Positions 15,441 to 35,973 of a stretch of DNA of 64,000 nucleotides are shown here, piece by piece. A program made the translations under genes and the position numbers. Origin of the DNA: a bacterium (GTDB taxonomy: Bacteria > Zhuqueibacterota > Zhuqueibacteria > Residuimicrobiales > Krinioviventaceae); contig OY843751.1 in NCBI GenBank assembly GCA_963693055.1, positions 1,504,001 through 1,568,000 of the forward strand, written 5' to 3'. The notes below the pieces were generated by a model, which did no database searches, was not told where the DNA came from, and was given only the letters and a program-made list of their open reading frames with translations. Position 1 is the stretch's first letter; each line of letters starts with the position of its first letter.

Positions 15441-16835
15441 GTGGAAAACGAAGTAAACCAGGCAATATTAGATCAATATGATTGCATTTGTATTGAGCAA
15501 AAGGGGGCTCAAATAAAACTTGTTAGTCATATAGATCATCAACCGCAGGAACTGGAAGAACTTGAATTCTTGTTGAATACGTCTGTGATGTTTAACAGAA
15601 TTTCCAAAGAAGAATTTGTTGAGATCCAGAAAATAAATGGTATCAACAGCAGTTCAATTAAAACCCAACCTACAGAAAAATCTCATGTCATAGATGAAAG
15701 CAGCGAGAACACGATTCAATTTGTCGATGATATTATTTATCAGGCAATCAGCGACAAAGCTAGCGATATTCATTTTGAACCCTATGAAACTTTTTTTCGG
15801 ATACGATACCGTATAGATGGTGTCTTGTTGGAAGTAAAAAAAATTGACAATCAGCAAAAAAACTCTATCATTGCACGCTTAAAGATTATGGCAGAATTGG
15901 ACATAGCTGAAAAAAGACGTCCCCAGGATGGCAGAATCCGAATAAAAAAAGATTCCCAGAATATTGATATACGCGTTTCTACTTTACCTACCGATTATGG
16001 TGAAAAAGTTGTATTACGTATTCTCGACAAGTCCATCGCTACATTTGATTTGGATAAATTAGGATTAGGTGATATGGAATCACGTCTCATTGGTGATGCA
16101 ATCCAGTCGCCTTTTGGGATTATATTGGTGACAGGGCCCACCGGTAGCGGTAAAAGTACTACACTCTATTCTGTATTAAAAGAACTCAATGATCCGGGAT
16201 ATAACATCGTTACGATAGAAGATCCCATCGAGTATAACGTTGAAGGAATCAATCAATCTCATGTGCGCTCAGATATTGGATACACTTTTGCAAGCGCATT
16301 ACGTAGCTTTCTAAGACAGGATCCAGATGTAATCATGGTAGGAGAGATCCGGGACCCTGAAACAGCAGAAATGGCGGTTCGTGCATCATTAACCGGGCAC
16401 CTGGTATTAAGTACAATCCATACCAATGATGCACCGAGCACCATTACCCGTTTGATCGATATGGGCATTGAACCGTTTCTGATTGCTGGATCAATAAAGC
16501 TGGTTATTGCACAGCGACTTGTTCGGATTTTGTGCAACCAATGTAAAGAACTAGTAACAGATGAACAATTAACGTTTAGAAATATTAAAATGCATTATGT
16601 ACCGAGGGGGTGTCCCTCTTGCAGGGATACAGGATACCGGGGACGCAGGGCGTTGTTTGAGATACTGGATATAACGCAAGACATCGGGGAGATGATTGCA
16701 AAACGTGCCAGTACAACAAAGATTCGTGAGATGGCTAAAGAAAACGGAATGATATCACTGCGTGAACAAGGAGTTAAGTTAATTGAGGATGGAGTTACGT
16801 CCATTTCGGAGATAATCCGGGAAACCAGTCTATAA
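15441..16835 (+). CDS. gspE: GspE/PilB-family assembly ATPase
   Basis: ASDIHFEP, PQDGR, Walker A GPTGSGKST, EDPIE, LRQDPD..VGEIRD, GHLVLSTIHTN, two CxxC. Confidence 0.93.
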   Translation: MENEVNQAILDQYDCICIEQKGAQIKLVSHIDHQPQELEELEFLLNTSVMFNRISKEEFVEIQKINGINSSSIKTQPTEKSHVIDESSENTIQFVDDIIYQAISDKASDIHFEPYETFFRIRYRIDGVLLEVKKIDNQQKNSIIARLKIMAELDIAEKRRPQDGRIRIKKDSQNIDIRVSTLPTDYGEKVVLRILDKSIATFDLDKLGLGDMESRLIGDAIQSPFGIILVTGPTGSGKSTTLYSVLKELNDPGYNIVTIEDPIEYNVEGINQSHVRSDIGYTFASALRSFLRQDPDVIMVGEIRDPETAEMAVRASLTGHLVLSTIHTNDAPSTITRLIDMGIEPFLIAGSIKLVIAQRLVRILCNQCKELVTDEQLTFRNIKMHYVPRGCPSCRDTGYRGRRALFEILDITQDIGEMIAKRASTTKIREMAKENGMISLREQGVKLIEDGVTSISEIIRETSL

Positions 16836-16848
16836 TGTGAGGTAAATT

Positions 16849-18744: not shown

Positions 18745-20113
18745 TAAATGGATTCATTCGTTTGCCTTAAAACATTTTATTCTATCCTTATTTCAATATG
18801 AAAAACGGGTGATCTGTCTTGAAATAATGGATTCGCACATCACAGTCCTTGGGCTGCTCAAGGGCAAAAATGAGATATATACCTGGTTGAATGACAGATT
18901 AGTCATTCCCAATTCTGATGATAACTTTATCAAAACAGGATTACAAGAAGCTATAAACGTTTATCCGGAAATCAAGCATTATCAGATTGTTTATCTATGG
19001 CCGGGATTAAAGACCATTTATCGTAATGAACTTGATGGAGATACATCTCCTTCATTCATGTCAATGTTAAATTCTGCTGATTTTAAAGCCGTCGAGTTGG
19101 AGACGGGTAATAAAACCAAATTGCGGGCTTTTGCAAAAAACAGTGATCTGGAAAATATAGAAAATTTATTTGATGAGATTGGATTAAACCTGGCAGGGAT
19201 TTATAAAGGCAATCTGGAATGGATTTATACGTACCTGGTTAGGAACCCAATAAAGTTTTCCGGGGAACAACGATTCGCGTATATCGATGAACAATTCACG
19301 TTGGACATATTATTCAAAGATGGAATATGTAACAATATTCAGATCCAGTCATCCATTCCTGCTCCTGTGAGCCTGTCAAAAGAATCGGAATATCAGGGCT
19401 ATGCGTGTATATGCAATCGTAATGGTGGAAAAGGGATGATACCGGACATCTCTGATGAATATGAAACTGACTGGAAGGATCCAGGTATTGTCGCTGCTAA
19501 TGGTGTAGCATTGAGTCATTATTATACTCAATTTAGTTCATTCAATTTTTTATCAAAAAAAATACACGAGAAAGTAAAATATAAAGGGATTGAGAAAAAA
19601 ATACAAAAGATTTTGGTATTGATTACTGGAATGTTAATAATTCTGAATTTTTTGCTCTTGATTCCCTCTATAATTATTGACTCAAAGCACAGTCAGTTAT
19701 TAGCTCAAAAGCAGACCGTAGAAACCCAAATTACAAAAATCAATCAGTTCGAAGCTGAGAATAAAAATCTAACAGACCAATATGAGAAACTGGTCTTGTT
19801 ACAATCACAAAAGACCAGGATCGGCAGGGCGATGTATTGTGTAAGCCAAGTGATTCCTCAGGATACCTGGTTAGAGAATATGAACTGGGGAGATACCAGA
19901 ATGAATCGACAAGCCGATGCAGATAAATTATTTATTGAGGGATATTCAAAAAAGCAGTTATCAGTCATTACATTTATAGAAAGTATGAAAGATGAACCTT
20001 TATTTGATCAGGTATCTCTTGATAATTATGATACCGGTTTTGAAAAACGTCCTGGCAGCAGTAAAGATAAAGCAGGCATCCATTTTTTAATTTCAGCGAG
20101 AGTAGTGCAATGA
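18722..20113 (+). CDS. PilM/PilN-like (GspL-like) inner-membrane platform protein
   Basis: Cytoplasmic N-terminus, one TM, coiled coil, PilN-like IPQDTWL...IEGYS; position in operon. Confidence 0.65.
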   Translation: MLKKLSNNKWIHSFALKHFILSLFQYEKRVICLEIMDSHITVLGLLKGKNEIYTWLNDRLVIPNSDDNFIKTGLQEAINVYPEIKHYQIVYLWPGLKTIYRNELDGDTSPSFMSMLNSADFKAVELETGNKTKLRAFAKNSDLENIENLFDEIGLNLAGIYKGNLEWIYTYLVRNPIKFSGEQRFAYIDEQFTLDILFKDGICNNIQIQSSIPAPVSLSKESEYQGYACICNRNGGKGMIPDISDEYETDWKDPGIVAANGVALSHYYTQFSSFNFLSKKIHEKVKYKGIEKKIQKILVLITGMLIILNFLLLIPSIIIDSKHSQLLAQKQTVETQITKINQFEAENKNLTDQYEKLVLLQSQKTRIGRAMYCVSQVIPQDTWLENMNWGDTRMNRQADADKLFIEGYSKKQLSVITFIESMKDEPLFDQVSLDNYDTGFEKRPGSSKDKAGIHFLISARVVQ

Positions 20114-20640
20114 AATCATACCTATCACAAATCACCAGGGAACAAATCTATGTTATTGCCGGATTTTTACTATTTAGCATTTTGGTATTCTTTTTTATAT
20201 CAAAACCCTTGATATCCGGTATTTATCAAGACAGTATTGATATCCGGACTATGGAACAACAGATTGAAAACGCCAAACAATGGAAAACTATTACCGGAAG
20301 GTTGAGGGAAGAGAATGAAACTCTTGCCGGTGTGATAACAAACAATCAAAAAACGTATTTATACGGCAAGAGTTCCTTTGATATCATTAAATATGTTCAG
20401 GAGAATGCAGTAAAGTCTAAAGTTAAGGTTGTATTGATTGAACCAGTGATATCATCGAAAAAGACAGAAAATCCTCAAGTGCAGTTCAAAGTAACCGGGT
20501 CTTTTCACCAAATTGGAAAGCTGGTACATACCATTGAAACGGGTCCATATCTAGTTTTTATAAAAAGCTTAACTATTGAGAAAGCAAAAAAAACAAAAAA
20601 CACGTTGATTGCAAAAGTAGTGTTGGAAATTCATCAATAA
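20110..20640 (+). CDS. PilO/GspM-like protein
   Basis: N-terminal TM, coiled coil, VTGSFHQIGKLV..IE. Confidence 0.7.
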   Translation: MKSYLSQITREQIYVIAGFLLFSILVFFFISKPLISGIYQDSIDIRTMEQQIENAKQWKTITGRLREENETLAGVITNNQKTYLYGKSSFDIIKYVQENAVKSKVKVVLIEPVISSKKTENPQVQFKVTGSFHQIGKLVHTIETGPYLVFIKSLTIEKAKKTKNTLIAKVVLEIHQ

Positions 20641-20648
20641 ATGAAGAG

Positions 20649-21128
20649 ATGAATATGGCAAAAATGACAAAGAAGAAATTTAATCTTGTTTTATTATTTA
20701 TTATTGCTATAGCTGTATGGGGCTCAAATGGTTACAGGATGATAAAAGGCATTACCCTGGGTGATTCATCAGGTGCAATGCCGGAGGTTAAAACAGGGCA
20801 AGTTCAGTTGAACTTGTTGAGTGATTCATTAGCGAGCTGGGAATATCCCAAGAGTGGACGTGATCCGTTTTTTCTGACAGTACAAAAGACTGTAGCTAAA
20901 TCAGTCTCAGCACCAAAAAGAAAAAAGCCTGAGATAATACCTCCCAGACTTTTATTAACCGGTATAATTCTGGACCATAATGAAAGAGTAGCAGTGATAG
21001 AAACCCCTGACCGGAATGTTCATTTTTTAAAAGAAAAAGCAGAACTAGATTCCCTGGTGATCGATAAAATTGCCGAGAAGCATATTGTTGTGAAATACAA
21101 AAGGAAAACATTTGAATATTCTTTATAG
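20649..21128 (+). CDS. PilP/GspC-like protein
   Basis: N-terminal TM, RDPF, LLLTGII....VAVI, IDKI. Confidence 0.6.
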   Translation: MNMAKMTKKKFNLVLLFIIAIAVWGSNGYRMIKGITLGDSSGAMPEVKTGQVQLNLLSDSLASWEYPKSGRDPFFLTVQKTVAKSVSAPKRKKPEIIPPRLLLTGIILDHNERVAVIETPDRNVHFLKEKAELDSLVIDKIAEKHIVVKYKRKTFEYSL

Positions 21129-22503
21129 AAAATATTTCTTGTCGGAAATCAAAGATGAACAAGGATATACTTTATTAACAGTTTTGGTTTTTATGATCAT
21201 CATCATGTTGATTTTATTATGCCTGATAGAATATGTTCATGTACAATATCGATTCATTTTAAAAGATTCGCACCAGGTACAGGCAGATTATTTGGCTGAG
21301 AGCGGTGTAGCTTATTTCCTGAATGATATTGACAAATATTTTGAACAAATACAATTTAATCCCACACAATCTTTTGATTGTTTCTATCCGATTGAACAAG
21401 ATACGGTTTATATTCAAGCCATGCCGTGGGGGGGATTCATCCGTGTAGAGGTGAATGCAAAGTATAAAAGTGCTTTTTCACGAAAACAGGCAATGATTGG
21501 TCAAGGATTGACGGAATCCATGGATAATGCTATTGTATTGGATAACCTTGATAATCCATTGATTGTTACAGGAGAGACAGAGATAACGGGTAATGTGGCT
21601 GTTGGTACAAGAGGCGTGAAATCCGGTAATATTAAAGGTATTCGCTTCAAGGGAAAACGGCTTGTGACGGGTGATATTATCACAAAAAACCGGTCACAGA
21701 TGTCAGCAATCAATCCACAGGTCTCTTTTGAAGCAACCAAAACAATGCTGGATGGATTGCAATCCCAACCGGATAAAGATCCTTTCAATGCGGGTTCTGT
21801 AATTGATGAAGAACGGCTACCATCCTGTCTGATTTTTGAGGATGATTTTGAATTTACCGATTGGTCGTTGCTGGATTCAACTAAAGCATGTACGGTTGTA
21901 ACCACAGGTTCATTACTTGTCGGGCCAGATCTTGATCTTCCCAGACAATCCATGCTGGTTGCCGCTGACACTTTGATATTAAAGAATTGTAATCTAGACC
22001 AGGCGCTGATTTATGGTAAAAAACAAATACAGGTCTCCGGAAATGTTTGCGGTAATGCGCAGTTTCTGTCTGATGAACAGATTATCGTGAAAAACGGAGT
22101 GACCCTGTGCTGGCCATCTATTTTGTATGTGAACCGAGAGGTCCCTAATGCGCAACCGTTCGAAGCAATCAAGCTGGAGGGTGGGACATCAGTTCGAGGG
22201 GCGGTAGTTTTATATACATCTGAAAAAACAAACAAGAATGTGATGAACCTATGCAGGATTAAAGTTGAAAAATTTGCGACAATGCATGGATTGCTTTATA
22301 CCAATCTTTCTGCTGATATGGGAGGAGAGTTGACAGGCCATGCATCTGTTTCTTCCTTTTATTTGTATTATTCACCAACACATTATATCAATTACCTGTT
22401 GGATGCCCGGATTGATCGAAATGGTTTGGATCCCGAGTTTCCCATACCGGTCCGGATTGGAGAAGAGCCTACATACCGGATCATTAACTGGCAGAATTTG
22501 TAA
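21112..22503 (+). CDS. large GspK/PilX-like minor pseudopilin
   Basis: G|YTLLTVL prepilin-like N-terminus without Glu5; A.YLAESGV; long beta-rich C-terminus. Confidence 0.7.
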   Translation: MNILYRKYFLSEIKDEQGYTLLTVLVFMIIIMLILLCLIEYVHVQYRFILKDSHQVQADYLAESGVAYFLNDIDKYFEQIQFNPTQSFDCFYPIEQDTVYIQAMPWGGFIRVEVNAKYKSAFSRKQAMIGQGLTESMDNAIVLDNLDNPLIVTGETEITGNVAVGTRGVKSGNIKGIRFKGKRLVTGDIITKNRSQMSAINPQVSFEATKTMLDGLQSQPDKDPFNAGSVIDEERLPSCLIFEDDFEFTDWSLLDSTKACTVVTTGSLLVGPDLDLPRQSMLVAADTLILKNCNLDQALIYGKKQIQVSGNVCGNAQFLSDEQIIVKNGVTLCWPSILYVNREVPNAQPFEAIKLEGGTSVRGAVVLYTSEKTNKNVMNLCRIKVEKFATMHGLLYTNLSADMGGELTGHASVSSFYLYYSPTHYINYLLDARIDRNGLDPEFPIPVRIGEEPTYRIINWQNL

Positions 22504-22508
22504 TACAG

Positions 22509-22877
22509 ATGAGGAATATGATTAAAGCTATAATTAAAAGAGAACAGGGATTCACCCTGGTTGAAAACATGATCGCACTGGCATTGATTACGGCGGTTAT
22601 AATCCCATCCAGTATGTTTATGGTGAAATTGGCACATAATCAAAAATCTTGCGATATGAGCACTGCTACACAATTGTGCAAGACAACTGTTGAATGTACA
22701 ATTGCCAATGAAGATTATTTACCTAAACAATGGCAAAAAGCAGTTAATAGTCGGGAGTGGCTGATCCAGCGGGAGATTGAGATTGAGGATCACTTGATTC
22801 ATATTTTTGTAATGGCAAAACCCGTGAATCGTGAGAACTGGATAAACAGGTTATATTTATGTCGATATCAAAATTAA
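22509..22877 (+). CDS. minor pseudopilin
   Basis: EQG|FTLVE N-terminal cleavage/methylation motif. Confidence 0.85.
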   Translation: MRNMIKAIIKREQGFTLVENMIALALITAVIIPSSMFMVKLAHNQKSCDMSTATQLCKTTVECTIANEDYLPKQWQKAVNSREWLIQREIEIEDHLIHIFVMAKPVNRENWINRLYLCRYQN

Positions 22878-23410
22878 AAGAGGAATCAGGATATACCCTG
22901 GTTGAGATCATGGTTGCCTTGTCCATGTCATTTATTGTTATAGGATTGGGTTACGCTGCTTTACACTTTACACAGGTCCGCTATAAAGAATGGCAGGTAC
23001 AGGAGCAGGTGATGCGCAAACAGCACACCATTCAAAAAATGATCTATAATGATATCTCCCAGGCAAGAAAGGTCTTGAGCATTGAGCCAAACCTGCTGCA
23101 ACTGCAGGATAAACGAGATAGTCTACTGGTTTATAGTTACAAAGACAGCATATTGTATCGCAATGAACGAATAATGAATAACAAGCAGTTACCTATGTTA
23201 TCCTGTTATTTCCTTGGTGATGAGCCCGAGTCTATTTTCGATTTCAAAGTGTTTATGGATCAGCTTGAAAGTCAAACCGTTGATAACGATTTATTACAAA
23301 CAGATTCTACTTTTATTCAATGCGTGCAATTCTATTATGAAATTCAGAATCCTACAGGAGAGATTTTGAATGCCCATGCAGTGATTAACCTGAGAAATAA
23401 AGAGTACTAG
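22859..23410 (+). CDS. minor pseudopilin (GspJ/PilW-like)
   Basis: ESG|YTLVEIMVAL motif. Confidence 0.85.
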   Translation: MSISKLKEESGYTLVEIMVALSMSFIVIGLGYAALHFTQVRYKEWQVQEQVMRKQHTIQKMIYNDISQARKVLSIEPNLLQLQDKRDSLLVYSYKDSILYRNERIMNNKQLPMLSCYFLGDEPESIFDFKVFMDQLESQTVDNDLLQTDSTFIQCVQFYYEIQNPTGEILNAHAVINLRNKEY

Positions 23411-23411
23411 T

Positions 23412-24563
23412 ATGAACAATTCCTTTTCCATACCCGAAGCAATTGTAGAGCAAAAACGAAAATCCCCAAAAAAGAGGGATGAAAAAAAACAATCCGCTTT
23501 ATCTCTGAAATTAAATTTTGGATTATCAAGGATTAAAAAACAGGAGGTAGCCCAGGCATTACGGCAGCTGGCAACGCTGGTGCAGATGCGATTTCCTCTG
23601 GATAAATCCCTGTTCATTGTTTGTGAACAGATACAGAATGACGCATTGAAAAAGATATTTGAGGATTGCAAGTGTAGAGTTGAAAAGGGAGAAACCCTGG
23701 CAGATGCGTTGTCAGTGTATGCAAAATATTTTCCACAAGCTGTATTAAAATTTACAATGATAGGAGAAGTCTCCGGTAATCTGGGGGACACGCTTGACCA
23801 GGCGGCATCACAAATGGAAAAGATGCTGAAACTGCGGCGCAAGCTGTTTTCCGCATTATCTTATCCTGCTATCGTTGTGATCGTTGCCATCTTTGCGGTT
23901 GGATTTCTACTGGCTGTCGTTGTTCCAACTTTTTCGGATGTGTTTTCCGATTTTGGTGCACAACTCCCCATTGCTACCCGGATTTTGGTTACCATGGGAG
24001 ATTTCCTGGTGAATTACTGGTATGTGCTGGTACTGTCGGTTTTGGGGATTGTCATGCTCGTTCAGCGAATGTGGAAGATTCCCCGGCTGCAAATACGGAT
24101 GGAAAAGTTGATCTGGAAAATGGCTGTTATTGGTCCGGTGATTAAGAAAGAAAAGTTGACCCGGTTTGTACGCACACTTGGTATGCTATTGCAGAATGGT
24201 ATTTTGTTACCTGAAGCCATTTCCATCAGCGGAAAGACATCTACAAGTTTAAATATTGAAAAAAAATCAGAAATAATTATTGAAAGAATTAAAAAAGGTG
24301 AGTCGTTTTATTCCGCTCTGAACGAGTCCGCTATCTTTCCAGCCATGCTGGTACAAATGGCAAGAGTAGGTGAAGAAGCTGGAGTACTGGGAGACATGCT
24401 GGACCGTTCCGCGGAATATTATGAATCTGAAATTGACGCGGCAATCGAAACATTGAATGCCGTTCTGGAACCTATTCTCATAATTGGATTGGGTATTGTG
24501 ATGGGAGCAATTGTTATTGCCATGTACTGGCAAATTTTTAATATCGTTGATGTTATTCAATAA
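23412..24563 (+). CDS. gspF: GspF/PilC inner-membrane platform protein
   Basis: RQLATL, GEVSGNL, ALSYP, VVPTF, GEEAG.L, LEP. Confidence 0.93.
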   Translation: MNNSFSIPEAIVEQKRKSPKKRDEKKQSALSLKLNFGLSRIKKQEVAQALRQLATLVQMRFPLDKSLFIVCEQIQNDALKKIFEDCKCRVEKGETLADALSVYAKYFPQAVLKFTMIGEVSGNLGDTLDQAASQMEKMLKLRRKLFSALSYPAIVVIVAIFAVGFLLAVVVPTFSDVFSDFGAQLPIATRILVTMGDFLVNYWYVLVLSVLGIVMLVQRMWKIPRLQIRMEKLIWKMAVIGPVIKKEKLTRFVRTLGMLLQNGILLPEAISISGKTSTSLNIEKKSEIIIERIKKGESFYSALNESAIFPAMLVQMARVGEEAGVLGDMLDRSAEYYESEIDAAIETLNAVLEPILIIGLGIVMGAIVIAMYWQIFNIVDVIQ

Positions 24564-24992
24564 ATGGAGGCTGTAATGCAACAGGTAAAACGTTTTTTTC
24601 AGGATGAATCCGGTTTTTCATTAACAGAGTTATTGGTAGTGATTGTAATCATTGGGATACTCGCATCCCTGGCATTACCCAAATTCCTCAATGTGATCAC
24701 CAAAGCCAAATCCACCGAGGCAAAGCTGATGTTAAAGCAGGTCTATCAACTCCAGGATACCTATTATATGGAGAATGATGTTTACGCAGCGGATCTTTCT
24801 GCTATGGGATTCTCACAGGATGCTCTAAAAACTGATGGCGGTTCGGCGCGTTACCGTATTGAACTTGAAGAGGTTAGTGCCATGGGATTTCTTGCCAAGG
24901 CAACCGCGGTAGTGGATTTTGACAAGGATGGCGTATTTAATGTCTGGTCTATCAACCAGGATGGCACTTTAAAAGAAGAAATTCCGGATTAA
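24564..24992 (+). CDS. major (pseudo)pilin
   Basis: ESG|FSLTELLVVIVIIGILASLALPKF; C-terminal DFDKDG..NVW. Confidence 0.9.
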   Translation: MEAVMQQVKRFFQDESGFSLTELLVVIVIIGILASLALPKFLNVITKAKSTEAKLMLKQVYQLQDTYYMENDVYAADLSAMGFSQDALKTDGGSARYRIELEEVSAMGFLAKATAVVDFDKDGVFNVWSINQDGTLKEEIPD

Positions 24993-25777
24993 TGATGATG
25001 TACGAATATCTATTCATAATATTAACAGCACTTGCTCTCGGTAGTTTTATGAATGTGTTGATCTATCGATTGCCATTAAAGCAATCCTTGTGGGAGCGAT
25101 CTAGATGTGATCATTGCGGAATTACTTTAAGCGTCCATGATCTGCTTCCTGTTGTAAGCTATGTAATGCAGCGGGGTACATGTTGTTACTGCGGAAAGCG
25201 GATATCTGTACAGTACCCGTTGATCGAGTTGTGGAGTGCTGTAATTGCAATCGGGATATTTTACTATAATGGAATCAATCGTTCATCCGTCGAATGTATT
25301 GTGCTGTTATATTTGATAACGGTGATCATGATCGTGGATTATCGGTACTATATCATTCCCAATCTTTTGGTCATTATTTTGGGTTTAATTGGGATTTTCA
25401 GGATTTTACTGAATCCTGAAATATTAATCAATACCCTTATAGGGGCTGTAACGATGGCTGCGGTTCCTGTTATATCAAGCTTGTTCTTTTATCTTGTCCG
25501 GGGGGGGACCGGATTTGGTATGGGCGATATCAAGCTGTTACTGGTACTGGGATTCTATATGGGTTTCCCCGGATCAATAGTTGTTTTTAGCATTGCTGTT
25601 ATAATTGGAGCAACAGTAGGTTTAATCGGGATAGTAATCGGAAAATGTTCAAGATACAGTAAGCTCCCTTTTGGTTTTTTTGTAGGGCTGGCAGTATATG
25701 TATTTATTCTTTTTATGTTAATTGGTAAAACTGATAATATGTGGTTGTTGTGGAAAAATTATATGGGGCAGTTATGA
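24992..25777 (+). CDS. prepilin peptidase (A24, GspO/PilD)
   Basis: GSFMNVLIYRLP, RSRCxxC, CxxC, IVD, GMGDIKL, PFG. Confidence 0.92.
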   Translation: MMMYEYLFIILTALALGSFMNVLIYRLPLKQSLWERSRCDHCGITLSVHDLLPVVSYVMQRGTCCYCGKRISVQYPLIELWSAVIAIGIFYYNGINRSSVECIVLLYLITVIMIVDYRYYIIPNLLVIILGLIGIFRILLNPEILINTLIGAVTMAAVPVISSLFFYLVRGGTGFGMGDIKLLLVLGFYMGFPGSIVVFSIAVIIGATVGLIGIVIGKCSRYSKLPFGFFVGLAVYVFILFMLIGKTDNMWLLWKNYMGQL

Positions 25778-26694
25778 AGCACAAAGTACTGGACGAAATT
25801 GTTGGGAAAAGTAAGCAAATAAAGCAGATCAAAACAATGATCGTTAAAATAGCCGGCCATACCCATATGCCGGTGATGATTACTGGGGAAACCGGCACTG
25901 GTAAGGAGCTGGTTGCAAATGCGCTGCATCAATGCAGTGACAGGGCTGGCAATGAAATGGTAAGGATCAATTGCAGTGCCATTCCCGGAGAGTTGTTAGA
26001 GAGCACACTTTTTGGTCACAAGAAAGGTGCCTTTACCAGCGCTACAGAAGATTCTATTGGTTTAGTAGAAGCCGCCAAGGATAGTACGTTGTTCCTGGAT
26101 GAGATCAGCGAGATGGATGTACGATTGCAGCCCAAATTATTACGGTTTTTGGAGAACGGTACCTATCGCCGATTAGGTGAAGTCAAAGAGCGCAAAGTGG
26201 ATGTGTGGGTGCTCACTGCAACTAACCGTGATCTGGATGCTGAATTGCAGCAGGGCAAATTCAGACCGGATTTGTACTATCGTTTAAAAGGATTGGGTGT
26301 TCACCTGCCACCCCTGCGGGACCGTATTGTTGATCTGGAATTACTGATTGATTATTTCTGTATGCTCCAGTCCAATGGTGATAATACAATTCTAAAATTG
26401 GAGCAGGATGTGATGAATGTATTTCAACATTACGACTGGCCTGGGAACGTGAGAGAGCTAAAGCAGTTGGTGCAAAATATGTGTATTTCGCTTGAAGAGC
26501 TTACAGTCAAGTCATTGGATTTACCAAAGAAGAGTAATGGTACATACCATAAAACTCTGCAAGAGATTGAAGTTGAGCATATTTCGAATGTTTTGAAAAA
26601 GTATAATTATCAAATTCGTAAATCTGCGCTGGTACTAGGGGTAGACCGCAATACATTGAGAAAAAAAATACAAAAATATGATATTCAAATTTAG
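25774..26694 (+). CDS. sigma54-dependent enhancer-binding protein (AAA+ plus Fis HTH, no receiver domain)
   Basis: GETGTGKE, GAFTSA variant of GAFTGA, FLDEI, FRPDLYYRL, WPGNVREL, LGVDRNTL. Confidence 0.92.
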   Translation: MKHKVLDEIVGKSKQIKQIKTMIVKIAGHTHMPVMITGETGTGKELVANALHQCSDRAGNEMVRINCSAIPGELLESTLFGHKKGAFTSATEDSIGLVEAAKDSTLFLDEISEMDVRLQPKLLRFLENGTYRRLGEVKERKVDVWVLTATNRDLDAELQQGKFRPDLYYRLKGLGVHLPPLRDRIVDLELLIDYFCMLQSNGDNTILKLEQDVMNVFQHYDWPGNVRELKQLVQNMCISLEELTVKSLDLPKKSNGTYHKTLQEIEVEHISNVLKKYNYQIRKSALVLGVDRNTLRKKIQKYDIQI

Positions 26695-26737: not shown

Positions 26738-26889
26738 AGGTGGGTGAGTTTCTCACCCACCTTTTTTGTTTAAAAACAAATAGTTAGGCGATTTCAGGAT
26801 TAAGTGGGTGAGTTTCTCACCCACCCTTGATAAGCGTCTGTTTAATTAGAACTTAGTCTGCATTATGGTGATTTAGGGTGGGTGAGAAA
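26738..26889. promoter_or_regulatory. repeated palindromes, candidate upstream activator sites
   Basis: GTGGGTGAG-TTT-CTCACCCAC at 26740-26760 and 26804-26824; half copy GTGGGTGAGAAA at 26878-26889. Confidence 0.55.
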
Positions 26890-26988: not shown

Positions 26989-27025
26989 ATAGCCTCAATG
27001 AATAATTAACCCATAGGAGGAAAGA

Positions 27026-30000
27026 ATGAAAAAAGCTCTTTTTCAAATTTGTCTTTTTATAATTGTTTTTATTAATCTCGAAAAGTGTTTAGCACAAGAA
27101 TATCAAGCATCTGAACCAACAGTATCACAATTTTTATATAATAGAAATGATTTTCCTTTAAACTATAATGGTGATTTAAATTTTAGTTATCCTTTGTTAA
27201 ATGTTCCTGGTATTAATGGATTGAATTTCGATTTAAATTTATTATATACCTCAGGTGGTGGCGTTAAAGCATCTGAAAATGGTTCGTGGGTGGGATTAGG
27301 ATGGAATTTAAATACATGTCAAATTAATTGTGCTCCAGCATTTAATGAATCTAATGGTGTAGAAAGTAATGCCAATGATATGTTTTATGTAAATTTACCT
27401 GGTTTAAATCATGCATTTTATAATATTTCTGCAACTTCTGAAGAAATTTGGCGAACAAATATTTTTGATAAGATTAATATTTTAGATATTGAATCCGATT
27501 TAGAAACTGAAGATTATACTGGATTTGTAATTACTTCAAAGGATGGTACAAGATATGTATTTAATAGTCCTTTGAAAAGAACATCACCTAAACCATTGAA
27601 TAATCATTCATTACATCTTTATGGGGATTTTACTAATGTATGGTATACATATGCGATAAGATTAACAGCAATATTAGGCCCAGATTATATTGATGGTGGT
27701 GGAACATCACAATATATACCAGACGATGGTGGTTCTGATTATGGATCTTGGATAAAATTTGAATATGACACACCTTTAGTTCGTACAATTCAAATGGGGA
27801 GTTCGACGACACAAAGAATTGAGATTGGATATCTTAGTAAAATTATAACTCCAACATATAAAGCTAAATTTAATATAGCATATCTCCAAGAAGAACAAAC
27901 AAGTAATGAATATTTACTGACTTTTGATGATTTTGATAATCCATTATTTAATATTGGATATTTAAAAAGATTAAAATCTATACAACTTTTTACAAAAGAA
28001 GCTGATGAGTCATCAAGTACAAATATTTTAAAAGAAGTTTCTTTTAATATCACGAAAGAATTTGGATGGTATGATAGTAGTTTTTTAACAACATACAATA
28101 GAACAAAATTGAATAATGTCACAATTTATGGTTCTGGGGGGAGTTCTAATAATTCAGTGATTGATAATATTGCATTTGAATACTATGATTATACACCTCA
28201 GAATGGATATTCAGATCCATGGGGATTTTATTCTCGCTATCAAGATGCAAATAATTGGACTGATTCAGAACAAGTTGATCGGTGGATGTTAAAAAAGATA
28301 ATATATTATTCTGGTGGTTTTGAACAATTTGAATATGAATCAGATAAATTTATTACTTGTTCTGGTAGCCCAATGTATTCTGAAGGTGAATTAGTCTATG
28401 GAGGTGGTGTTCGTATTAAGAAAAAAACTGTGAATGACGGTTTGGGGCACTCCTATGACTATTTATATTCATATGCTATTAATCATAATGGATATGGTTT
28501 TATAAGTGGATATCCTGGATTAGCTTTTAAAAATAACAAATCAAATAGACTGCATTTCTCCTCTGTTGGTTCTTCATATAATAATGATGTACATTATCCA
28601 GATATTACAGTCCAAAATCCTGACCTAAGTAAAACTACTTATTATTATACTACTGCAGCTTCTGCATATAGTAGTTCTTATGCTACCAGTGACGAACTTG
28701 CTCCTCCTACGTGTGATAATACCGAAAGCAACCAAGGGATTGTTTATACTCGCCAGAACGAAGAGAAAAAGTATCATGATTGTATTGGATATGTGAATGT
28801 TGTTTCCAACCCAGGATTTTTGTTATACTGGGATGATGTATATTTTATGCATGAATTTACTAATAGCTGGAAACGAGGTATCGTTTGGAAAATAGTGAAA
28901 AAGAATATTAGTAATTTACCAATTCAAGAAGTGAAAAATTATTATTATATGAAACCAATGGGTGCCCGTCAATATCAAGTTTCTTTTGATGGTTCTGCTG
29001 TCCATACTTGCTATTTTTCTTATGGATACCCACGTTTAGATGAAGTTATAACTAAAACATTTGATTCGAATGGACAAAATCCAGTTGAATCAGTTGTATC
29101 TTATGAATATCACTCGACAAGCAAATTAATTACAAAAATAACAGAAACCAATAGTGATGGCAATGAACGAAGGGCTCGTTATTATTACATGATTGACGGT
29201 GAATTTGAAATTGATGCAAATAGTGATGCGGCAACAGTTTTTACTAATAAACATATGTATTCACAAATAAACGCAGTGGCTGTGCACAATTCTAATGGTT
29301 GGGATTATAGTACTGGTGGGAGTCTTGAAAGTCTGGAAATTACCTGGTGGGATGAAGTATCTAAAAAACAAAGATATAAAACAATTTGGACAGATGATGA
29401 AGGGGATAAAGACGCAGAATCAGTTATATTACCTGGGAGTATTGATGTTGATGATGAGTGGATAAAAATCAGTATGGAGAATTATGATTCTCATAAAAGA
29501 TTAATCGAATCAATTGATGGAAATGGAAATGTAACCAAATATTATTATGGAACTAGTAATTCACCATTTTCGAATTCCACTTCAAATTATTATGTAACAG
29601 GCATTCAAAAACAAAATGGTACTTTAGATACTGTTTTACCTTCGATTTCTGGGAATAGACCGGGTGATGATATGTTTTTGGAATACCAATATAATAACTT
29701 GGGACAGGTCACAAAGATTGTTGATGAAAATGGTAAATCAATATATTATGAATACGACAATAGTTGGAGGTTGTCGGGTCAAAAAAATAATTCTCAAACT
29801 TCAATTCTATCATATAACTATCATAATAAAGCAGAAGGTGCAGATGGTGGTGTATTTGATTCTGATGATCCTAATGCAATTAATACTAGTAAATACTATA
29901 ATAGTACAGATGTTGGCAGCTTTGTGAAATATTTTGATGGGCTTGGTAGAGAAATTCAATCCCAGATTAATTTAGGTAATTCGATGATTTTACAAGGAAA

Positions 30001-31885
30001 AGTCTATAATTCTATGGGCCAGCTTGCAGTAATTACGAAACCTATTGAAGATGTGCAAATGACCAGTCATGATTATAGTACTTCTCTCATTGAAGCTGAT
30101 TGGATCATAGGTAATGCTATGACATCAGAGTCAAAAGTTAATAACTATTATACCAATACTTCAAATGATGAGAGTTTGCCACCACACGCAGGTGGGTATC
30201 CTTACACATTTACAAAATATGTTAATGGGTTTAGCGATAGAATAGAACAAGTTGGAAAACCTGGTTATGATTATAGGATTGTGTTAAATGGAAACCAAAT
30301 TGAATACTCTTATGGTACAAATGATGATATCATTACTATTGGTTCAAAGAGTTATTCCGCTCAAAAACTTTATAAAACAATTGTAACTGATGAGTGTAAT
30401 AAAAAAGTTACTGAATATAAAGATATTTTTGGTAATACGGTATTAAAAGTAATTGATCCAGGCTCAACATCAGTGAATTTAAATTTGCAAACCGGTTTTA
30501 TATATGATATTCGAGGTAGTTTAGTTAAAATTCTTCCACCAAAATCAAATTTGTCAGGTACAAGTCCTTACTGTACAAACATGACTTATAATTCGATTGG
30601 ACAAATGCTAACTAAAAGCTCACCCGATGCAGGATTGGTAGAGTACAAGTATGATAATAATGGGAATTTAAGATTTATAAGAGATGCAGTACATCGTTCC
30701 ACAACAGATTTAGACCGATTTGTTTTTAATATTTATGATGAATTAAATCGACTAATTATTACCGGTGAAACAACAAATACTTCATATACTCCTGATTGGA
30801 CTGAATTGAATGGAAACAATGATTATATTGATGGGGCAAATGATTTTGAGAATTTTGACACGCCTGGCACAACATACCAAATTGTTAATTGTTATGATGA
30901 GGCACCTGATTATGGTTCTGAAGGTGTATGGAAAGATGCACTGGATCGGGGAACGTTGAATAATCTTAAGGGGCGTTTGGCGGCAACGGCTTATTATGAT
31001 AAAGTTTCAGGAAAATATGGATATACATATTACTCTTATAATAACGATGGAAATATTGAATCACAATATCAAGATTTACCTGGGAATGAACTTGGTTGTA
31101 AAAAAATTAATTATTTTTATGATTGGCAAGGTAATATAACTAATATCTATTATCAACCATTTACTCTTGATCGTTTTTATATTAATTATGAATATGACTT
31201 GGCCGGGAGAGTTTCAGCGATTAATGCAAGACTAAGAAGTTGGGGGAGTTTTTTTCCAATAACTGAATATGAATATTGGCCAACTGGCCAGGTTAAATCT
31301 GTAATTTATAATTTGTATGACGATGATGACTCTAATGACAAAACTATAAACTATCAAATGCATATACGTGACTGGATTAAGAAAATTGATTTAAATAATA
31401 CATTTCAGGTAGAGTATGATTTCTTTAATAATGGAAATATTAAAGATATGGACCAAAAAGTTGATGGTGATCTTGATAATTCCCTTGCTGATGAAACGAG
31501 TTATGGATATGACATTTCATATGATAATGCTTACAGGTTGAAAGGAGCAACAGCTACAAATACACCAGCTATTAGCGTAGGATATAGTTATGATGATAAT
31601 GGTAATATTTTAGGATTGGGACGTGGTAGCTCAAGTACTCCTTCTCAAAATTATTTTTATATTGCAAATAAAAATCAGCTTGCCTATTTATCGGGGCAAA
31701 CAAATCCTAATTTTAAATATGATTTAAATGGTAATGTTACGGATGTTACTGACAAGGGTATCGAAGATATATATTATAATTATTTAAATTTACCCTATCA
31801 AATTGATTTTAGTTCTGATTGGATTAAATATGGTTATGATGCTACTGGTAAGCGGGTTTATAAAAAAGCATATATTTCAGAATAA
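27026..31885 (+). CDS. Rhs/YD-repeat shell protein, N-terminal part (no Rhs core)
   Basis: Signal peptide; G.L...PL..VPG...Y.SGGGVK....WVGLGWNL; YD repeats (YFDGLGR, YKYDNNGNL, YDLAGRV, YDLNGNV); ends YDATGKRVYKK. Confidence 0.9.
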   Translation: MKKALFQICLFIIVFINLEKCLAQEYQASEPTVSQFLYNRNDFPLNYNGDLNFSYPLLNVPGINGLNFDLNLLYTSGGGVKASENGSWVGLGWNLNTCQINCAPAFNESNGVESNANDMFYVNLPGLNHAFYNISATSEEIWRTNIFDKINILDIESDLETEDYTGFVITSKDGTRYVFNSPLKRTSPKPLNNHSLHLYGDFTNVWYTYAIRLTAILGPDYIDGGGTSQYIPDDGGSDYGSWIKFEYDTPLVRTIQMGSSTTQRIEIGYLSKIITPTYKAKFNIAYLQEEQTSNEYLLTFDDFDNPLFNIGYLKRLKSIQLFTKEADESSSTNILKEVSFNITKEFGWYDSSFLTTYNRTKLNNVTIYGSGGSSNNSVIDNIAFEYYDYTPQNGYSDPWGFYSRYQDANNWTDSEQVDRWMLKKIIYYSGGFEQFEYESDKFITCSGSPMYSEGELVYGGGVRIKKKTVNDGLGHSYDYLYSYAINHNGYGFISGYPGLAFKNNKSNRLHFSSVGSSYNNDVHYPDITVQNPDLSKTTYYYTTAASAYSSSYATSDELAPPTCDNTESNQGIVYTRQNEEKKYHDCIGYVNVVSNPGFLLYWDDVYFMHEFTNSWKRGIVWKIVKKNISNLPIQEVKNYYYMKPMGARQYQVSFDGSAVHTCYFSYGYPRLDEVITKTFDSNGQNPVESVVSYEYHSTSKLITKITETNSDGNERRARYYYMIDGEFEIDANSDAATVFTNKHMYSQINAVAVHNSNGWDYSTGGSLESLEITWWDEVSKKQRYKTIWTDDEGDKDAESVILPGSIDVDDEWIKISMENYDSHKRLIESIDGNGNVTKYYYGTSNSPFSNSTSNYYVTGIQKQNGTLDTVLPSISGNRPGDDMFLEYQYNNLGQVTKIVDENGKSIYYEYDNSWRLSGQKNNSQTSILSYNYHNKAEGADGGVFDSDDPNAINTSKYYNSTDVGSFVKYFDGLGREIQSQINLGNSMILQGKVYNSMGQLAVITKPIEDVQMTSHDYSTSLIEADWIIGNAMTSESKVNNYYTNTSNDESLPPHAGGYPYTFTKYVNGFSDRIEQVGKPGYDYRIVLNGNQIEYSYGTNDDIITIGSKSYSAQKLYKTIVTDECNKKVTEYKDIFGNTVLKVIDPGSTSVNLNLQTGFIYDIRGSLVKILPPKSNLSGTSPYCTNMTYNSIGQMLTKSSPDAGLVEYKYDNNGNLRFIRDAVHRSTTDLDRFVFNIYDELNRLIITGETTNTSYTPDWTELNGNNDYIDGANDFENFDTPGTTYQIVNCYDEAPDYGSEGVWKDALDRGTLNNLKGRLAATAYYDKVSGKYGYTYYSYNNDGNIESQYQDLPGNELGCKKINYFYDWQGNITNIYYQPFTLDRFYINYEYDLAGRVSAINARLRSWGSFFPITEYEYWPTGQVKSVIYNLYDDDDSNDKTINYQMHIRDWIKKIDLNNTFQVEYDFFNNGNIKDMDQKVDGDLDNSLADETSYGYDISYDNAYRLKGATATNTPAISVGYSYDDNGNILGLGRGSSSTPSQNYFYIANKNQLAYLSGQTNPNFKYDLNGNVTDVTDKGIEDIYYNYLNLPYQIDFSSDWIKYGYDATGKRVYKKAYISE

Positions 31886-31916
31886 TAAAATTTTGACAAT
31901 AAACTTGGAGTTTAAA

Positions 31917-33593
31917 ATGAAAAACGAAATTTTTGTATTATTAATAGTTGTTTTGGTTTTCTTTGGTGTTGCAACTTCTCAGAAAGTTGAAAGAGAAGAA
32001 CTTTTGGAAAAAAGAACATTAACAAGTAAAACTTTTCTAAATTCAGATAATAGCTATACTACAGAAATTAGTTCAGGATTTGTTCATTATTTGGATGGAA
32101 GCGGCAAGTACCAGGAAATAAATCGTAATATTGTTCCCTCATCAACTGATTATGATTTTGAAGTATCTGAAGGCATGTACCAGGTTTTTTTCAAGTCAGA
32201 TATTAGCCAACCTAATGCTGTAGTTTGTCAAACCCGTGGTGGTGCAGGTATTAATACCCAGTTATGGGGAATGGGTTACCTTGATATTTCTACCAAAGAA
32301 TACCAGGTATTACATAAAGTCCAACCAACTGATGCTGTAACAAAGGGAAATGAAATATATTATACAAATGTTTTTGAAAATGTTGATATGAGAATTCAAT
32401 ATTCGGAAACAAAACTAAAAGAAGAAATCTTTTTAACCCAAAAAGCCAGAGCAAGCCTGCCTGTGCCCGAAAATTTTAAAATGAACAGCAAGCAGACATA
32501 CCTGGTTTTTATTCATAAAATTGACATGGATATGCCTTCAATTGCGCCATTTGCTCAAAAACAATCATTAAAATCAAAATCAGAAGCTTATGAAGGTAAG
32601 GATCGAATTGAATTCAAGGATATTAAAGGAGATGTTAAATTTTATTTGCCATTAGATTACGCTTTTCTGGAATCTGATAGAGACTCTGTATTCTCTGAAA
32701 ACATAACAGAGATTACCAAGCGAATAATAGTTGAAAATGGAGAAAGATTCTTGATGGCTGGCGTACCTCTTTCATGGGTTGAGAACAGAACGGAGGGTAC
32801 TATTGTATTTGATCCTACGGTTTCTATTCAACCTACTACTGCTGCGGTTGGGAAAGATGCAATGATTTTAGAGTACCCAGTTAATTCTGAATGTGTATAT
32901 AAGAACTATGGAGCTTATGAAAGAATTTATGCAGAAACATCACGTCCTTGGAGGACATTGATACAATTTGATGTTTCATCTATACCAGAATCGGCTCAAA
33001 TTAATGAAGCAAATTTAACTTTGTATCTTTTGAAAAATGCATCTAATTCTGAAGCATCAAAGACATTGTATTGTTACCCTATTCTTAGAGAGTGGAAAGA
33101 AGGGTCTGCTGCAAATGCCGTTAATTCAAGTGCTTATGATGGGGTGACATGGTATGAACGCTTTTGGCTAAATTCAGTAAGCGTTGCAACTGCAAATAAT
33201 GCTTTTAACAGTAATGATCCATGGGATGAGAGCTTGGCCGATTGGCGCACTCAAGGTGGTGACTTTGGAAGTTTAACTGTTTCTAAGGTTATAACCGAAT
33301 TAGCATATCACTTTTGTGATGTTGATATTAAAGATGCAGTTGAAGGCTGGGTTGCTAATCCGGATGATAATTTTGGAATAATGTTGAAAACTGACGAATT
33401 AGTTACATACGCTACTTCATCATCTGCTTCTTCTGCTACAACTTATTACGAGTTTTGGTTTGTTGCCTCTGATAATACCAGTTATTCTTCAAGTTATTTT
33501 CCAAAACTGGTGATTGATTATACTCTTGAAACACGCAGTACCTATTATGTACGAGATGCAGCGGGTAATGTTATTGCCACCTATGAACGATAA
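31917..33593 (+). CDS. secreted DNRLRE-like domain protein ending in a single Rhs repeat
   Basis: Signal peptide; ELLEKRT..SKTF.N.D.SYT...HY; KDA.I...NYG...LIQFDVS.IP...A.L.LY...W.....NFGIML...PKLVIDY; last residues TYYVRDAAGNVIATYER. Confidence 0.82.
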   Translation: MKNEIFVLLIVVLVFFGVATSQKVEREELLEKRTLTSKTFLNSDNSYTTEISSGFVHYLDGSGKYQEINRNIVPSSTDYDFEVSEGMYQVFFKSDISQPNAVVCQTRGGAGINTQLWGMGYLDISTKEYQVLHKVQPTDAVTKGNEIYYTNVFENVDMRIQYSETKLKEEIFLTQKARASLPVPENFKMNSKQTYLVFIHKIDMDMPSIAPFAQKQSLKSKSEAYEGKDRIEFKDIKGDVKFYLPLDYAFLESDRDSVFSENITEITKRIIVENGERFLMAGVPLSWVENRTEGTIVFDPTVSIQPTTAAVGKDAMILEYPVNSECVYKNYGAYERIYAETSRPWRTLIQFDVSSIPESAQINEANLTLYLLKNASNSEASKTLYCYPILREWKEGSAANAVNSSAYDGVTWYERFWLNSVSVATANNAFNSNDPWDESLADWRTQGGDFGSLTVSKVITELAYHFCDVDIKDAVEGWVANPDDNFGIMLKTDELVTYATSSSASSATTYYEFWFVASDNTSYSSSYFPKLVIDYTLETRSTYYVRDAAGNVIATYER

Positions 33594-33650
33594 TTGATCT
33601 GTTGAATTGCCGCCTTTATAATGACGGTGGCTATTTTAGGGAGATTTAAT

Positions 33651-34706
33651 ATGAAAATTAAAAAATATTTGCTTTTGATCGTAATTTTTTGTAGTATTTT
33701 AAATATTAATCTTTATGCCAGTGATGAATGGTCTTTTATGATCAATGACCATGTAGGGAATACCCGTGCTGTATTAGATGAATACGGCAATACCCGTGCT
33801 ATTTACGATTATTACCCATATGGACTTGAAATGCATTCGATGGTTAGCGGCAAGGAAACCCGATTCAAGTACACTGGGAAAGAATTGGATGAAGCTGGTG
33901 GGTTAAATTGGTATTACTATGGTGCTCGTTTTTATGATCCTCAAATTGGACGTTTTATGGGTGTTGATCCACTAGCTGTAAAATATCCAACATTAAGTCC
34001 TTATGTATATTCAGCAAATAATCCAGTAATGTTATTTGATGTTGATGGAAGATATATTATGCGAGGTAATATGGTTTTGAGGTATCCAATAGGTATGGCA
34101 TATACAATAGAATATGGTAGTATGGTTAGTACTTTAGGTGCATTTGCAATATATGGAACACAACATTTATTAGGGGATCATAATTACGATTTTTTTACCC
34201 TCGCATCACTAACACCTGCAGATAATGTTTTTATGATAGGTTCAAAATTAATGACTTATGCAAGTAAAACTGGAATAATAAGTGAAAAAGCATTGATGGT
34301 TGCTGGTTTATCTATGGGAAAATTGCCTCTTGATATGGTTCAAGGTTTAACTGATAATAATACAGTTAACAAAACATACCGTGATATGGCAATACAATAT
34401 GTATTAGTGAATTTAGGAGTTGCTGTAGATCGCACTCATAGATTATGTGCAGTGGATCGTACTTTTCCAACTATTGAAGTTGTGAATATGAAATTAATTG
34501 AATCTCTATTAGGATATAAAGCGAATCCAGCAGACTTTGTAGAGGTTGTAGAATCATTTTTTAAAATGAAAAAAAACGAATTTATTGAAGATCATGGAGA
34601 AAAGTTGTATGATAAATTAAAAGAAGCTTATGATAAAGAAAATACTTTTATGCCCTTGGATCGTGATAGATCATTTACATTTGATATACATTTTGAGATT
34701 AAATAA
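33651..34706 (+). CDS. Rhs-associated core plus C-terminal putative toxin, with its own signal peptide
   Basis: MKIKKYLLLIVIFCSILNINLYA; DHVGNTR, YYPYG, YTGKELD, YYGARFYDPQIGRF..VDP, SPYVY..NNP...DVDG. Confidence 0.9.
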   Translation: MKIKKYLLLIVIFCSILNINLYASDEWSFMINDHVGNTRAVLDEYGNTRAIYDYYPYGLEMHSMVSGKETRFKYTGKELDEAGGLNWYYYGARFYDPQIGRFMGVDPLAVKYPTLSPYVYSANNPVMLFDVDGRYIMRGNMVLRYPIGMAYTIEYGSMVSTLGAFAIYGTQHLLGDHNYDFFTLASLTPADNVFMIGSKLMTYASKTGIISEKALMVAGLSMGKLPLDMVQGLTDNNTVNKTYRDMAIQYVLVNLGVAVDRTHRLCAVDRTFPTIEVVNMKLIESLLGYKANPADFVEVVESFFKMKKNEFIEDHGEKLYDKLKEAYDKENTFMPLDRDRSFTFDIHFEIK

Positions 34707-34869
34707 ATTCAGTTTACATCTCTTTTATGATAGCTTATATTTTTTGAAGAAAAACTATGAATTAAAAATAACCAAGAATCTATTAGTGAAAGTACTTAAT
34801 ATGACTATTAAAAATTCAAAATGAAAGAATGTATGGAAAATATTTAATATTAATCCATGATAAAGGAAA

Positions 34870-35973
34870 ATGGATATGATAAAAAAAGTTTTTATCTTTA
34901 TATTTGGAGTGCCATTTTATTTTGTATTACAAACATTGTGTGTTGCTGACGAACCAATATTGGGTGAAGGTAAATTTAATGCTGAAATTACAAATACTGC
35001 AAACATGATAGCCTTTATTCAAGACAAGAAAAATGATTATTTAATACAACCTGAAAATTCAGATATCTATTTATTAAATCCAAATAATGGTAAGCGACAA
35101 CACCTGACAGAAGATAAATATCAGTATGAAGAATTGCAATGGTCACCTGATGGCAGAAATATGTTGTTCACATGCAGACGTAATAATGATTTGGGAGCAA
35201 GTTTCGATGCTTCAGAGAATCCAGCCTATCTAGCTATTTATAGTTTTGACTCACTTGAGGAACGATTGTTGGAAAATGTGATTAAAAATAATGTTATAAA
35301 ATTGGGGAATACCTATTATAAAGGGAATAAAGATTTTAAATGGCACACTGAAGACAAATATTTCAATACTTCCAGAATTTCATGGCTTAATAATAATAGA
35401 ATCTCTTTCTTTAGGAAATTTCCATTTGGTATAGATAGAAGAATAGGAGATTTATGTACAACCGATTTACATGGTAATAATCTAAAAGTTTTTAGAGATT
35501 TTAAAAAACCTAGAAAATGGTTTGGTGGTAAAATCTGGTTAAATGAAATAACACTGTTATTTGTACACTTGTTAAATGAGGACAAGTGGGATTTAGTTAT
35601 GGTTAATACAAAAAATGATTCAATTATCCCACAAAATTATCCTCAAAATGATATTTATGAGATAGATGATATATTTTGTATTTCTAATAATAAAAAATAT
35701 TTACTTTGTGAGGAATCGAAATTTGACACAAAGATTAATAAACAATTTAATCGTATGGCTTTATATAATTTAGATACTGGCATAAAAAGGATTCTTATGA
35801 ATGATGTATTTGGTGCTTGTTTTTCACCTGATGATTCAATGATAGCATGTATTCATGGTGATCATTCGGGTAATAATGATATCTTTTTATTGGATATAAA
35901 CGGAAAAATTGTAAAACAATTAACTTTTGATGGAGGACGTAAAAGTTCAATTGACTGGTGTTCAGTGAAATAG
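34870..35973 (+). CDS. TolB-like (PD40) beta-propeller, candidate immunity or accessory protein
   Basis: Signal peptide; DIYLL, WSPDGR, FSPDDS, DIFLLD...QLT; directly after the toxin gene. Confidence 0.7.
   Translation: MDMIKKVFIFIFGVPFYFVLQTLCVADEPILGEGKFNAEITNTANMIAFIQDKKNDYLIQPENSDIYLLNPNNGKRQHLTEDKYQYEELQWSPDGRNMLFTCRRNNDLGASFDASENPAYLAIYSFDSLEERLLENVIKNNVIKLGNTYYKGNKDFKWHTEDKYFNTSRISWLNNNRISFFRKFPFGIDRRIGDLCTTDLHGNNLKVFRDFKKPRKWFGGKIWLNEITLLFVHLLNEDKWDLVMVNTKNDSIIPQNYPQNDIYEIDDIFCISNNKKYLLCEESKFDTKINKQFNRMALYNLDTGIKRILMNDVFGACFSPDDSMIACIHGDHSGNNDIFLLDINGKIVKQLTFDGGRKSSIDWCSVK

Follow-up and report, generated by a model that had tools for sequence, protein, structure and literature searches.

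The toxin-capsule protein Rhs is usually a single chain, and a locus in which it appears in pieces raises the question whether these are the remains of a broken gene or the parts of a capsule built from separate polypeptides. We addressed this question in a stretch of 64,000 nucleotides (the window), which covers positions 1,504,001 to 1,568,000 of contig OY843751.1 (assembly GCA_963693055.1) from a bacterium of the Krinioviventaceae, phylum Zhuqueibacterota. Here, as in several related bacteria, the Rhs protein is encoded by three consecutive genes, and we regard it as nearly certain that the locus is a functional split. Four co-directional open reading frames of the window (27026-31885, 31917-33593, 33651-34706 and 34870-35973) make up the locus, and each of them is preceded by a purine-rich ribosome-binding site of its own and has an N-terminus that is hydrophobic and carries positive charge.

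Gene 1 (27026..31885, forward strand) encodes the shell chain, a protein of 1619 residues with a signal-peptide-like start, family matches to DUF6443 (PF20041) and to YD/RHS repeats (PF05593, TIGR01643), and weak structure matches to 8CP6 and 7Q97. It supplies the YD/RHS repeat shell of a Rhs polymorphic toxin and ends, without a core, at a YDxxGxRxxK hairpin, its C-terminus being YDATGKRVYKK (31835-31867) plus five residues. A first-pass annotation of the window had described exactly this signal-like start, these repeats and a stop at that motif, to which the five further residues have to be added. Signal-like starts were called by a crude fixed rule on N-termini, with the starts of the split-locus genes picked by us, and were found at 21 of 21 split-locus N-termini as against 1236 of the 3055 open reading frames of the genome. 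Other short Rhs-core proteins had such a start in 3 cases out of 83, and two of these three resemble further gene 3 chains.

The middle chain, encoded by gene 2 (31917..33593, forward strand, 558 residues), consists of a signal-peptide-like start, a beta-rich N-domain, a DNRLRE/CBM96-like domain (about 32811-33525) and an Rhs tail. We placed its start at the ATG at 31917, behind GGAG; the TTG at 31803 given by the open reading frame finder was rejected, as it lies inside gene 1, has no ribosome-binding site and buries the signal. Gene 2 matches the DNRLRE domain, and its C-terminal domain matches 7VBO, an alginate lyase domain (E 9e-9) that we take to be a CBM96 module; PF24517, which is listed on gene 2 homologs, is presumably the same family. 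For the N-domain, a fold search with the gene 2 model yielded nothing clear, only weak matches to glycosidase supersandwich folds and carbohydrate-binding modules. Gene 2 is likely to provide a sugar-binding arm of the carbohydrate-binding type.

The tail of gene 2 (33540..33590, forward strand) is the 17-residue Rhs hairpin TYYVRDAAGNVIATYER, which was modelled by structure prediction as a two-strand hairpin with a predicted local distance difference test (pLDDT) score of about 80, and whose position in single chains is between the end of the shell and the core. It is the most conserved 15-mer of 20 middle chains (0.88 versus at most 0.68 elsewhere), a figure biased by the selection of these chains for having the tail. 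Homologs of the middle chain carry extra Fn3 and Ig domains ahead of the tail, which is retained on unrelated or extended modules (P0006, L067) and comes close to matching the junction motif of the single chain L068. The gene 2 module shows homology over its whole length to the N-terminus of a single-chain Bacilli Rhs protein (probability 99%). The initial description of gene 2, with its own ribosome-binding site and signal-like start, unrelated domains and an Rhs tail, is confirmed.

Gene 3 (33651..34706, forward strand, 351 residues, starting at the ATG at 33651 behind GGGAG) encodes a signal-peptide-like start of about 23 residues, the Rhs core or autoprotease plug (about 33720-34049) and a variable tip (34050-34703). 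The core matches TIGR03696 above the cut-off and both aspartates of the autoprotease motif, D106 and D130, are intact; the core with two such aspartates that marks Rhs polymorphic toxins is hence present on a gene of its own, and shell, core and tip are spread over three genes instead of sharing one polypeptide. The ribosome-binding site and signal-like start ascribed earlier to gene 3 are both there, but the chain does not begin directly at DHVGNTR, since this motif stands at residue 33, about 9 residues past the predicted cleavage site.

The identical three-gene breaks are found in five complete loci of four genomes from three families, namely the window, a second locus of the same genome (L001), L037 (genome G004), L115 (G100) and L117 (G112). 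The shell of L001 is 37% identical to that of the window and has the same end point, its core gene is signal-bearing, and its middle gene (9557-10066, 169 residues) carries a small domain unrelated to gene 2 and two tandem tail-like hairpins. Partial loci comprise a middle and a core gene in G138 (L118) and G137 (L123), and a shell and a middle gene in L057, L058 and L067; the third gene of L058 is a different signal-bearing protein with no core within the 325 residues seen, and the shell of L067 ends one hairpin earlier. The first-pass annotation had proposed a designed split rather than decay. This is supported by the recurrence of the break points and by colinearity with single chains and solved structures.

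Homologs of the individual pieces place these loci among further arrangements, with the reservation that database proteins may be cut by contig ends and that ends were checked for the named loci. A match to the end of gene 1 was seen in 52 proteins: 4 end at the same motif, 12 have no core and end about 40 residues further on, 35 proceed into the core and 1 is unclear. Proteins screened for the gene 2 module (n=152) end in the tail in 18 cases (plus one by eye), run straight into the core in 15 and reach the core by way of about 200 residues of repeats in 13; 84 have the DNRLRE domain alone in common, another 20 are fragmentary or unrelated, and the N-domain is lacking from 2 Rhs proteins. In type B loci (L128, L130, L132) the shell ends after a second hairpin and the module gene follows, these module genes being cut by a contig end or broken, and in type C loci (L036, L038, L119, L120, L127) the shell ends about 200 residues earlier and is followed by a gene for module, repeats and core. 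In every split type the downstream gene picks up Rhs sequence near the stop of the upstream gene. In a shell tree built by a quick method, nine shells ending at the first junction grouped together with 99% support in the Shimodaira-Hasegawa-like approximate likelihood ratio test (SH-aLRT), one member (G034) being cut by a contig end and two more such shells lying outside the group.

Some loci may be divided further. L116 (G100:C29, 839-12643) and L121 (5633-10635) have extra signal-bearing genes among or beside the Rhs pieces, possibly giving at least four chains, and in L062 (4412-12306) and L063 (1-10812), outside the phylum, a second Rhs gene is directly preceded by a large signal-bearing gene, which may mark one more split point, upstream of DUF6443. 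Signal-bearing proteins with a common coiled-coil-like C-terminus of the LLQKIEELTLY type, which we take to resemble tail-fibre chaperone-domain proteins, are clustered next to several Rhs loci, in L001 (11605-16000), L005, L127 (6441-7934) and L068 (548-4980).

The pieces are also colinear with the unbroken protein. When the three pieces were aligned separately to each single-chain relative, the end of gene 1, the tail of gene 2 and the core of gene 3 fell in order in three of five relatives, each above 200 shuffles; in a fourth, L068, tail and core are in order and the gene 1 match is out of place owing to an inserted domain. This order also holds in the solved single chains 8FJP and 9ON3. 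The motif order asserted in the earlier annotation needs one correction: between the tail motif and DHLG, single-chain relatives carry one more hairpin, about 20 residues long, by which the three chains together fall short of one full single chain. A single chain of G138 (L118, G138:C131, 11071-17868, minus strand) lacks both junction hairpins, with about 16 residues between its last shell hairpin and the core, and is followed by orphan tips and then by the middle-plus-core gene pair. Taken with the missing second hairpin, this chain suggests that the barrel either makes do with a shorter rim or accepts two tails, the latter being hinted at by the double tail of P0006. Inserted domains occur at the same loops in the single-chain relatives P0025, P0026 and L068, which fits junction loops that would be surface-exposed and permissive. 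A predicted fold for a single-chain piece of L071 (408 residues, 6-row alignment) had a mean pLDDT of 47 and was not used.

The tip of gene 3 comprises 218 residues, and tips are unrelated among loci with conserved cores. It matches no known family, toxin families included, all scores in an Atlas structure search were under 0.9, and it has no strong transmembrane segment; a firm call of a pore-forming tip was dropped on a maximum 19-residue hydropathy of 1.08. One homolog was found in 166 other genomes of the phylum, on a core cassette in G106, and directly 3' of it lies a homolog of gene 4 (29% identity, pairwise E 3e-42). Gene 4 (34870..35973, forward strand), which falls inside the span of the first-pass annotation and was left undescribed there, encodes a TolB-like beta-propeller with a hydrophobic N-terminus. 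Joint occurrence of this kind is what one would expect of a toxin and its immunity protein, and gene 4 is likely the immunity gene; a variable tip with a downstream immunity gene, as in Rhs polymorphic toxins, is accordingly present as a sequence pattern. Since the propeller would be exported, a target on the periplasmic side is suggested, where the tip probably works as an antibacterial toxin. The swappable tip and variable middle chain that had been postulated find support as sequence patterns, in unrelated tips and unrelated middle modules.

About ten orphan Rhs core-tip cassettes are scattered among insertion sequences in the same genome (L002, L003, L004, L005), several with a propeller-like gene next downstream, and such cassettes also occur in other genomes. 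Orphan cassettes arrayed in L133, L134, L171 and L172 have their start within the DNRLRE module and extend over core and tip, which suggests that tips are exchanged by recombination in the module.

Absent from the earlier annotation, like the two other split types, is the setting that bears on the export route: both split loci of the genome lie directly behind clusters resembling a type II secretion system (T2SS), and the pseudopilin of these clusters co-occurs with related Rhs proteins across the phylum. The cluster of the window (15441..25777, forward strand) encodes a GspE/PilB ATPase, a secretin, a PilN-domain protein, a GspM-like protein, two unassigned open reading frames, minor pilins, GspF, a major pseudopilin and a prepilin peptidase. 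By content it has the secretin, single extension ATPase, GspF, pseudopilins and peptidase of a T2SS and no PilT, with all type-specific NCBIfam matches below curated cut-offs; the only PilT over the cut-off in the genome belongs to a third cluster, with a third secretin. The other two of the three secretins are directly upstream of the two split loci, which hold the only long YD-rich genes of the genome. Cluster genes stand upstream in 9 of the 14 split loci for which upstream sequence was available (window, L001, L036, L037, L038, L058, L115, L120, L127), counting L037 through the preceding locus and L120 by ATPase and activator only, and they also adjoin the single-chain relatives L068, L069 and L071. 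Among 167 genomes of the phylum, 19 have this pseudopilin and 15 of these carry a related Rhs protein, compared with 20 of the 148 that lack it (Fisher P 8e-9, an overstated value because related genomes are not independent). A T2SS of this general kind has been reported in Cytophaga, according to the accessible portion of PMC5553014. Type VI export finds no counterpart here, in that neither PAAR/VgrG linkage nor a sheath was seen: the locus proteins gave no PAAR match and the genome no VipB, the Bacteroidota-type sheath family not having been searched. With VipB missing and the type IX translocon SprA present, type IX export is the main rival route.

Chain binding, cleavage, toxicity and route we infer as follows. 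Each chain would be exported singly across the inner membrane via Sec, and chain 1 would fold into an open barrel. Chain 3, as the C-terminal plug, would feed its tip into the barrel interior and cleave itself at the DVDG motif. Chain 2 would join the rim of the barrel with its terminal hairpin, displaying its carbohydrate-binding-type arm for attachment. One shell would thus be assembled in the periplasm and the particle would leave through the adjacent T2SS-like machine and its secretin, the tip acting as a periplasm-side antibacterial toxin that the exported gene 4 propeller would neutralise. Assembly into one particle appears quite probable. Completion of the shell by strand complementation is plausible by analogy with TcB-TcC, against the absence of one hairpin of most single chains. 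For the account as a whole, with separate Sec export, periplasmic assembly and T2SS-like exit, we see somewhat better than an even chance.

A number of observations weigh against this account. The signal-peptide rule is crude and has a background of 40%, and the binding of the chains to one another is deduced from sequence rather than from a structure model or an experiment. The second hairpin is absent from all three chains and a genome search gave no significant match (best E 3.1); in one of the five single chains (P0021) the tail scored below its shuffles, and the G138 single chain, lacking both junction hairpins, indicates that the tail may be dispensable. The tip has neither a known family nor a strong transmembrane segment. 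As to the route, cluster genes were not seen upstream in 5 of the 14 loci (L117, L119, L128, L130, L132), all three of type B included, 8 of 20 module-bearing genomes, which are incomplete, gave no pseudopilin match, and SprA is encoded in the genome.

These points feed chiefly into two other readings. The chains may assemble but leave by type IX secretion, in vesicles or by lysis, or meet at the cell surface, the cluster then serving other cargo; SprA, the type B loci and G112 without an adjacent cluster, and the sub-cut-off scores of the cluster genes would agree with this. We nevertheless consider it unlikely, as no type IX sorting domain was found on the window's chains, both copies of the cluster in the genome abut split Rhs loci, and the linkage extends to the three single-chain relatives named above. 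Rather unlikely, too, is a working unit of shell and core chain as in TcB-TcC, with the middle chain an optional accessory or a free adhesin bearing a relic tail. The conservation of the tail within the biased set, its persistence on unrelated or extended modules and its near match with the L068 junction motif speak for a tail in use, whereas the short passage from shell to core in the G138 chain, the Bacilli Rhs protein in which a weakly similar motif, opening the shell, comes after this module, and a locus in G079 with an unrelated gene upstream of a signal-bearing core gene would suit the two-chain unit.

Other explanations deny the toxin, the separate chains or the locus itself. A surface adhesin or signalling particle could account for the lack of a toxin family match and for the carbohydrate-binding-type modules on chain 2 and on some shells, but hardly for tips that differ between loci despite conserved cores, for orphan core-tip cassettes in this and other genomes, or for the joint travel of tip and gene 4, and we hold it very improbable. 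That the pieces are rejoined by DNA excision, RNA splicing or protein splicing is scarcely plausible: they are colinear with a single chain, but each has its own ribosome-binding site and signal-like start, no repeat pairs flanking the junctions and no intein family match were found, and the joined form is not in the contigs examined, contigs being prone to drop rare variants. Pseudogene decay or an assembly error, finally, is hardly conceivable. The locus lies near insertion sequences, has a low guanine-plus-cytosine (GC) content and was not found in the same-genus genome G001, where orphans are present with no shell or module match; against this stand intact frames throughout, the module of 540 residues between the pieces, and breaks that are identical in divergent loci from several families. 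The region 26500-36172 is moreover spanned by one contig in each of three public runs with zero differing letters, the runs coming from one sample that is possibly the source of the assembly. A joint between 27971 and 31870 in one run, at low depth and with a 21-letter side, was treated as chance.

Between the cluster and gene 1 lies a gene for a sigma-54-type activator (25774..26694, forward strand) with AAA+ and helix-turn-helix domains and no receiver domain, whose homologs occupy the same place in the loci of G004, G032, G100, G142 and G161; it is likely the regulator of the Rhs operon. Downstream of it, two copies of GGGTGAG-N3-CTCACCC 64 bp apart (26738..26825, no strand assigned) and a half site near 26880 are candidate operators; these are the only two full copies in the genome, and the same motif recurs upstream of the G100 locus. 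Spaced, locus-specific palindromes in two or three copies lie between activator and Rhs genes in the window (26738-26900), L115 (7375-7810), L036 (11270-11606), L037 (2320-3085) and L120 (7200-7565). A promoter scan returned 65 sites versus 62.9 expected. The region 5' of the secretion cluster (110-14686) looks mobile, with sliding-clamp-like and methyltransferase-like genes, a resolvase, three transposases and a presumably Cas6-like gene, recognised by its motif, and just 3' of gene 4 (36888-39011) are a low-GC radical S-adenosylmethionine gene (PA0069-like, below cut-off) and an unassigned open reading frame of 312 residues.

Among known systems, TcB-TcC (YenB/YenC, TcdB2/TccC3) is the closest precedent: PMC11067744 describes an RHS shell made of two chains and able to take up an orphan core chain, and the core chain cleaves itself and bears variable cargo. 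The gene 3 core matches TcB-TcC entries by sequence, but TcC combines shell and core in roughly 680 residues, as against a plug of about 110 and a tip of 218 residues here. The present locus also adds a third chain, and signal-like starts are seen on all of its chains. The SpvB/TcdB domains and TcA partner of ABC toxins are lacking at the locus, as judged from the four proteins and the open reading frame lists of the window, TcA not having been searched genome-wide. Single-chain Rhs proteins such as Photorhabdus Rhs1, Pseudomonas RhsA and Tse5 share the YD barrel, the aspartyl-protease plug, the variable tip and the downstream immunity gene (PMC8636562, in part). The core serves there as C-terminal plug and autoprotease, and the cleaved fragments of Rhs1 remain associated, as the same portion of that source has it. 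They differ in being made from one gene, cut after translation and loaded by type VI secretion, whereas the cuts described here are genetic and lie inside the barrel wall; the nearest single-chain kin are DUF6443 shells. Streptococcus suis WapA-CT1 likewise has a Sec signal, a DNRLRE domain, an Rhs shell and a polymorphic tip, but its module is N-terminal on one chain with autocleaved fragments (PMC12704120, in part), while in this two-membrane bacterium the module does not share the chain of the shell and forms its own, encoded by a separate gene downstream. The portions consulted of two polymorphic-toxin surveys (PMC3482391; PMC9424270) recognise a signal-peptide or 'T2SS/Sec-dependent' class without signature neighbouring genes, which has signal peptides and RHS repeats in common with the present locus (PMC3482391) and differs from it in that here a dedicated-looking cluster is adjacent and the protein comes in pieces. 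In the full-text literature searched, mostly non-subscription and supplements aside, we found no description of a genetically split, signal-bearing Rhs protein in three-chain form, which leaves its absence unproven. The split Rhs apparently works like TcB-TcC in principle without being a member of it; it is real and conserved, and apparently undescribed.

The phylum-wide linkage points to a T2SS devoted to Rhs toxins, where the literature searched gave only the generic 'signal peptide' class, and the three natural split types mark loops at which the barrel wall tolerates a break. More generally, Rhs capsules may prove modular, put together in the periplasm by strand complementation of two or three chains that are exported separately, loaded in trans, fitted with an arm that clips on by 17 residues and released through a Rhs-dedicated T2SS, a view we put forward tentatively and at somewhat less than even odds. 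As to how the Rhs barrel gets its cargo inside, single chains could fold around it; with plug and cargo on a separate chain of 351 residues, loading in trans would become directly testable with natural proteins.

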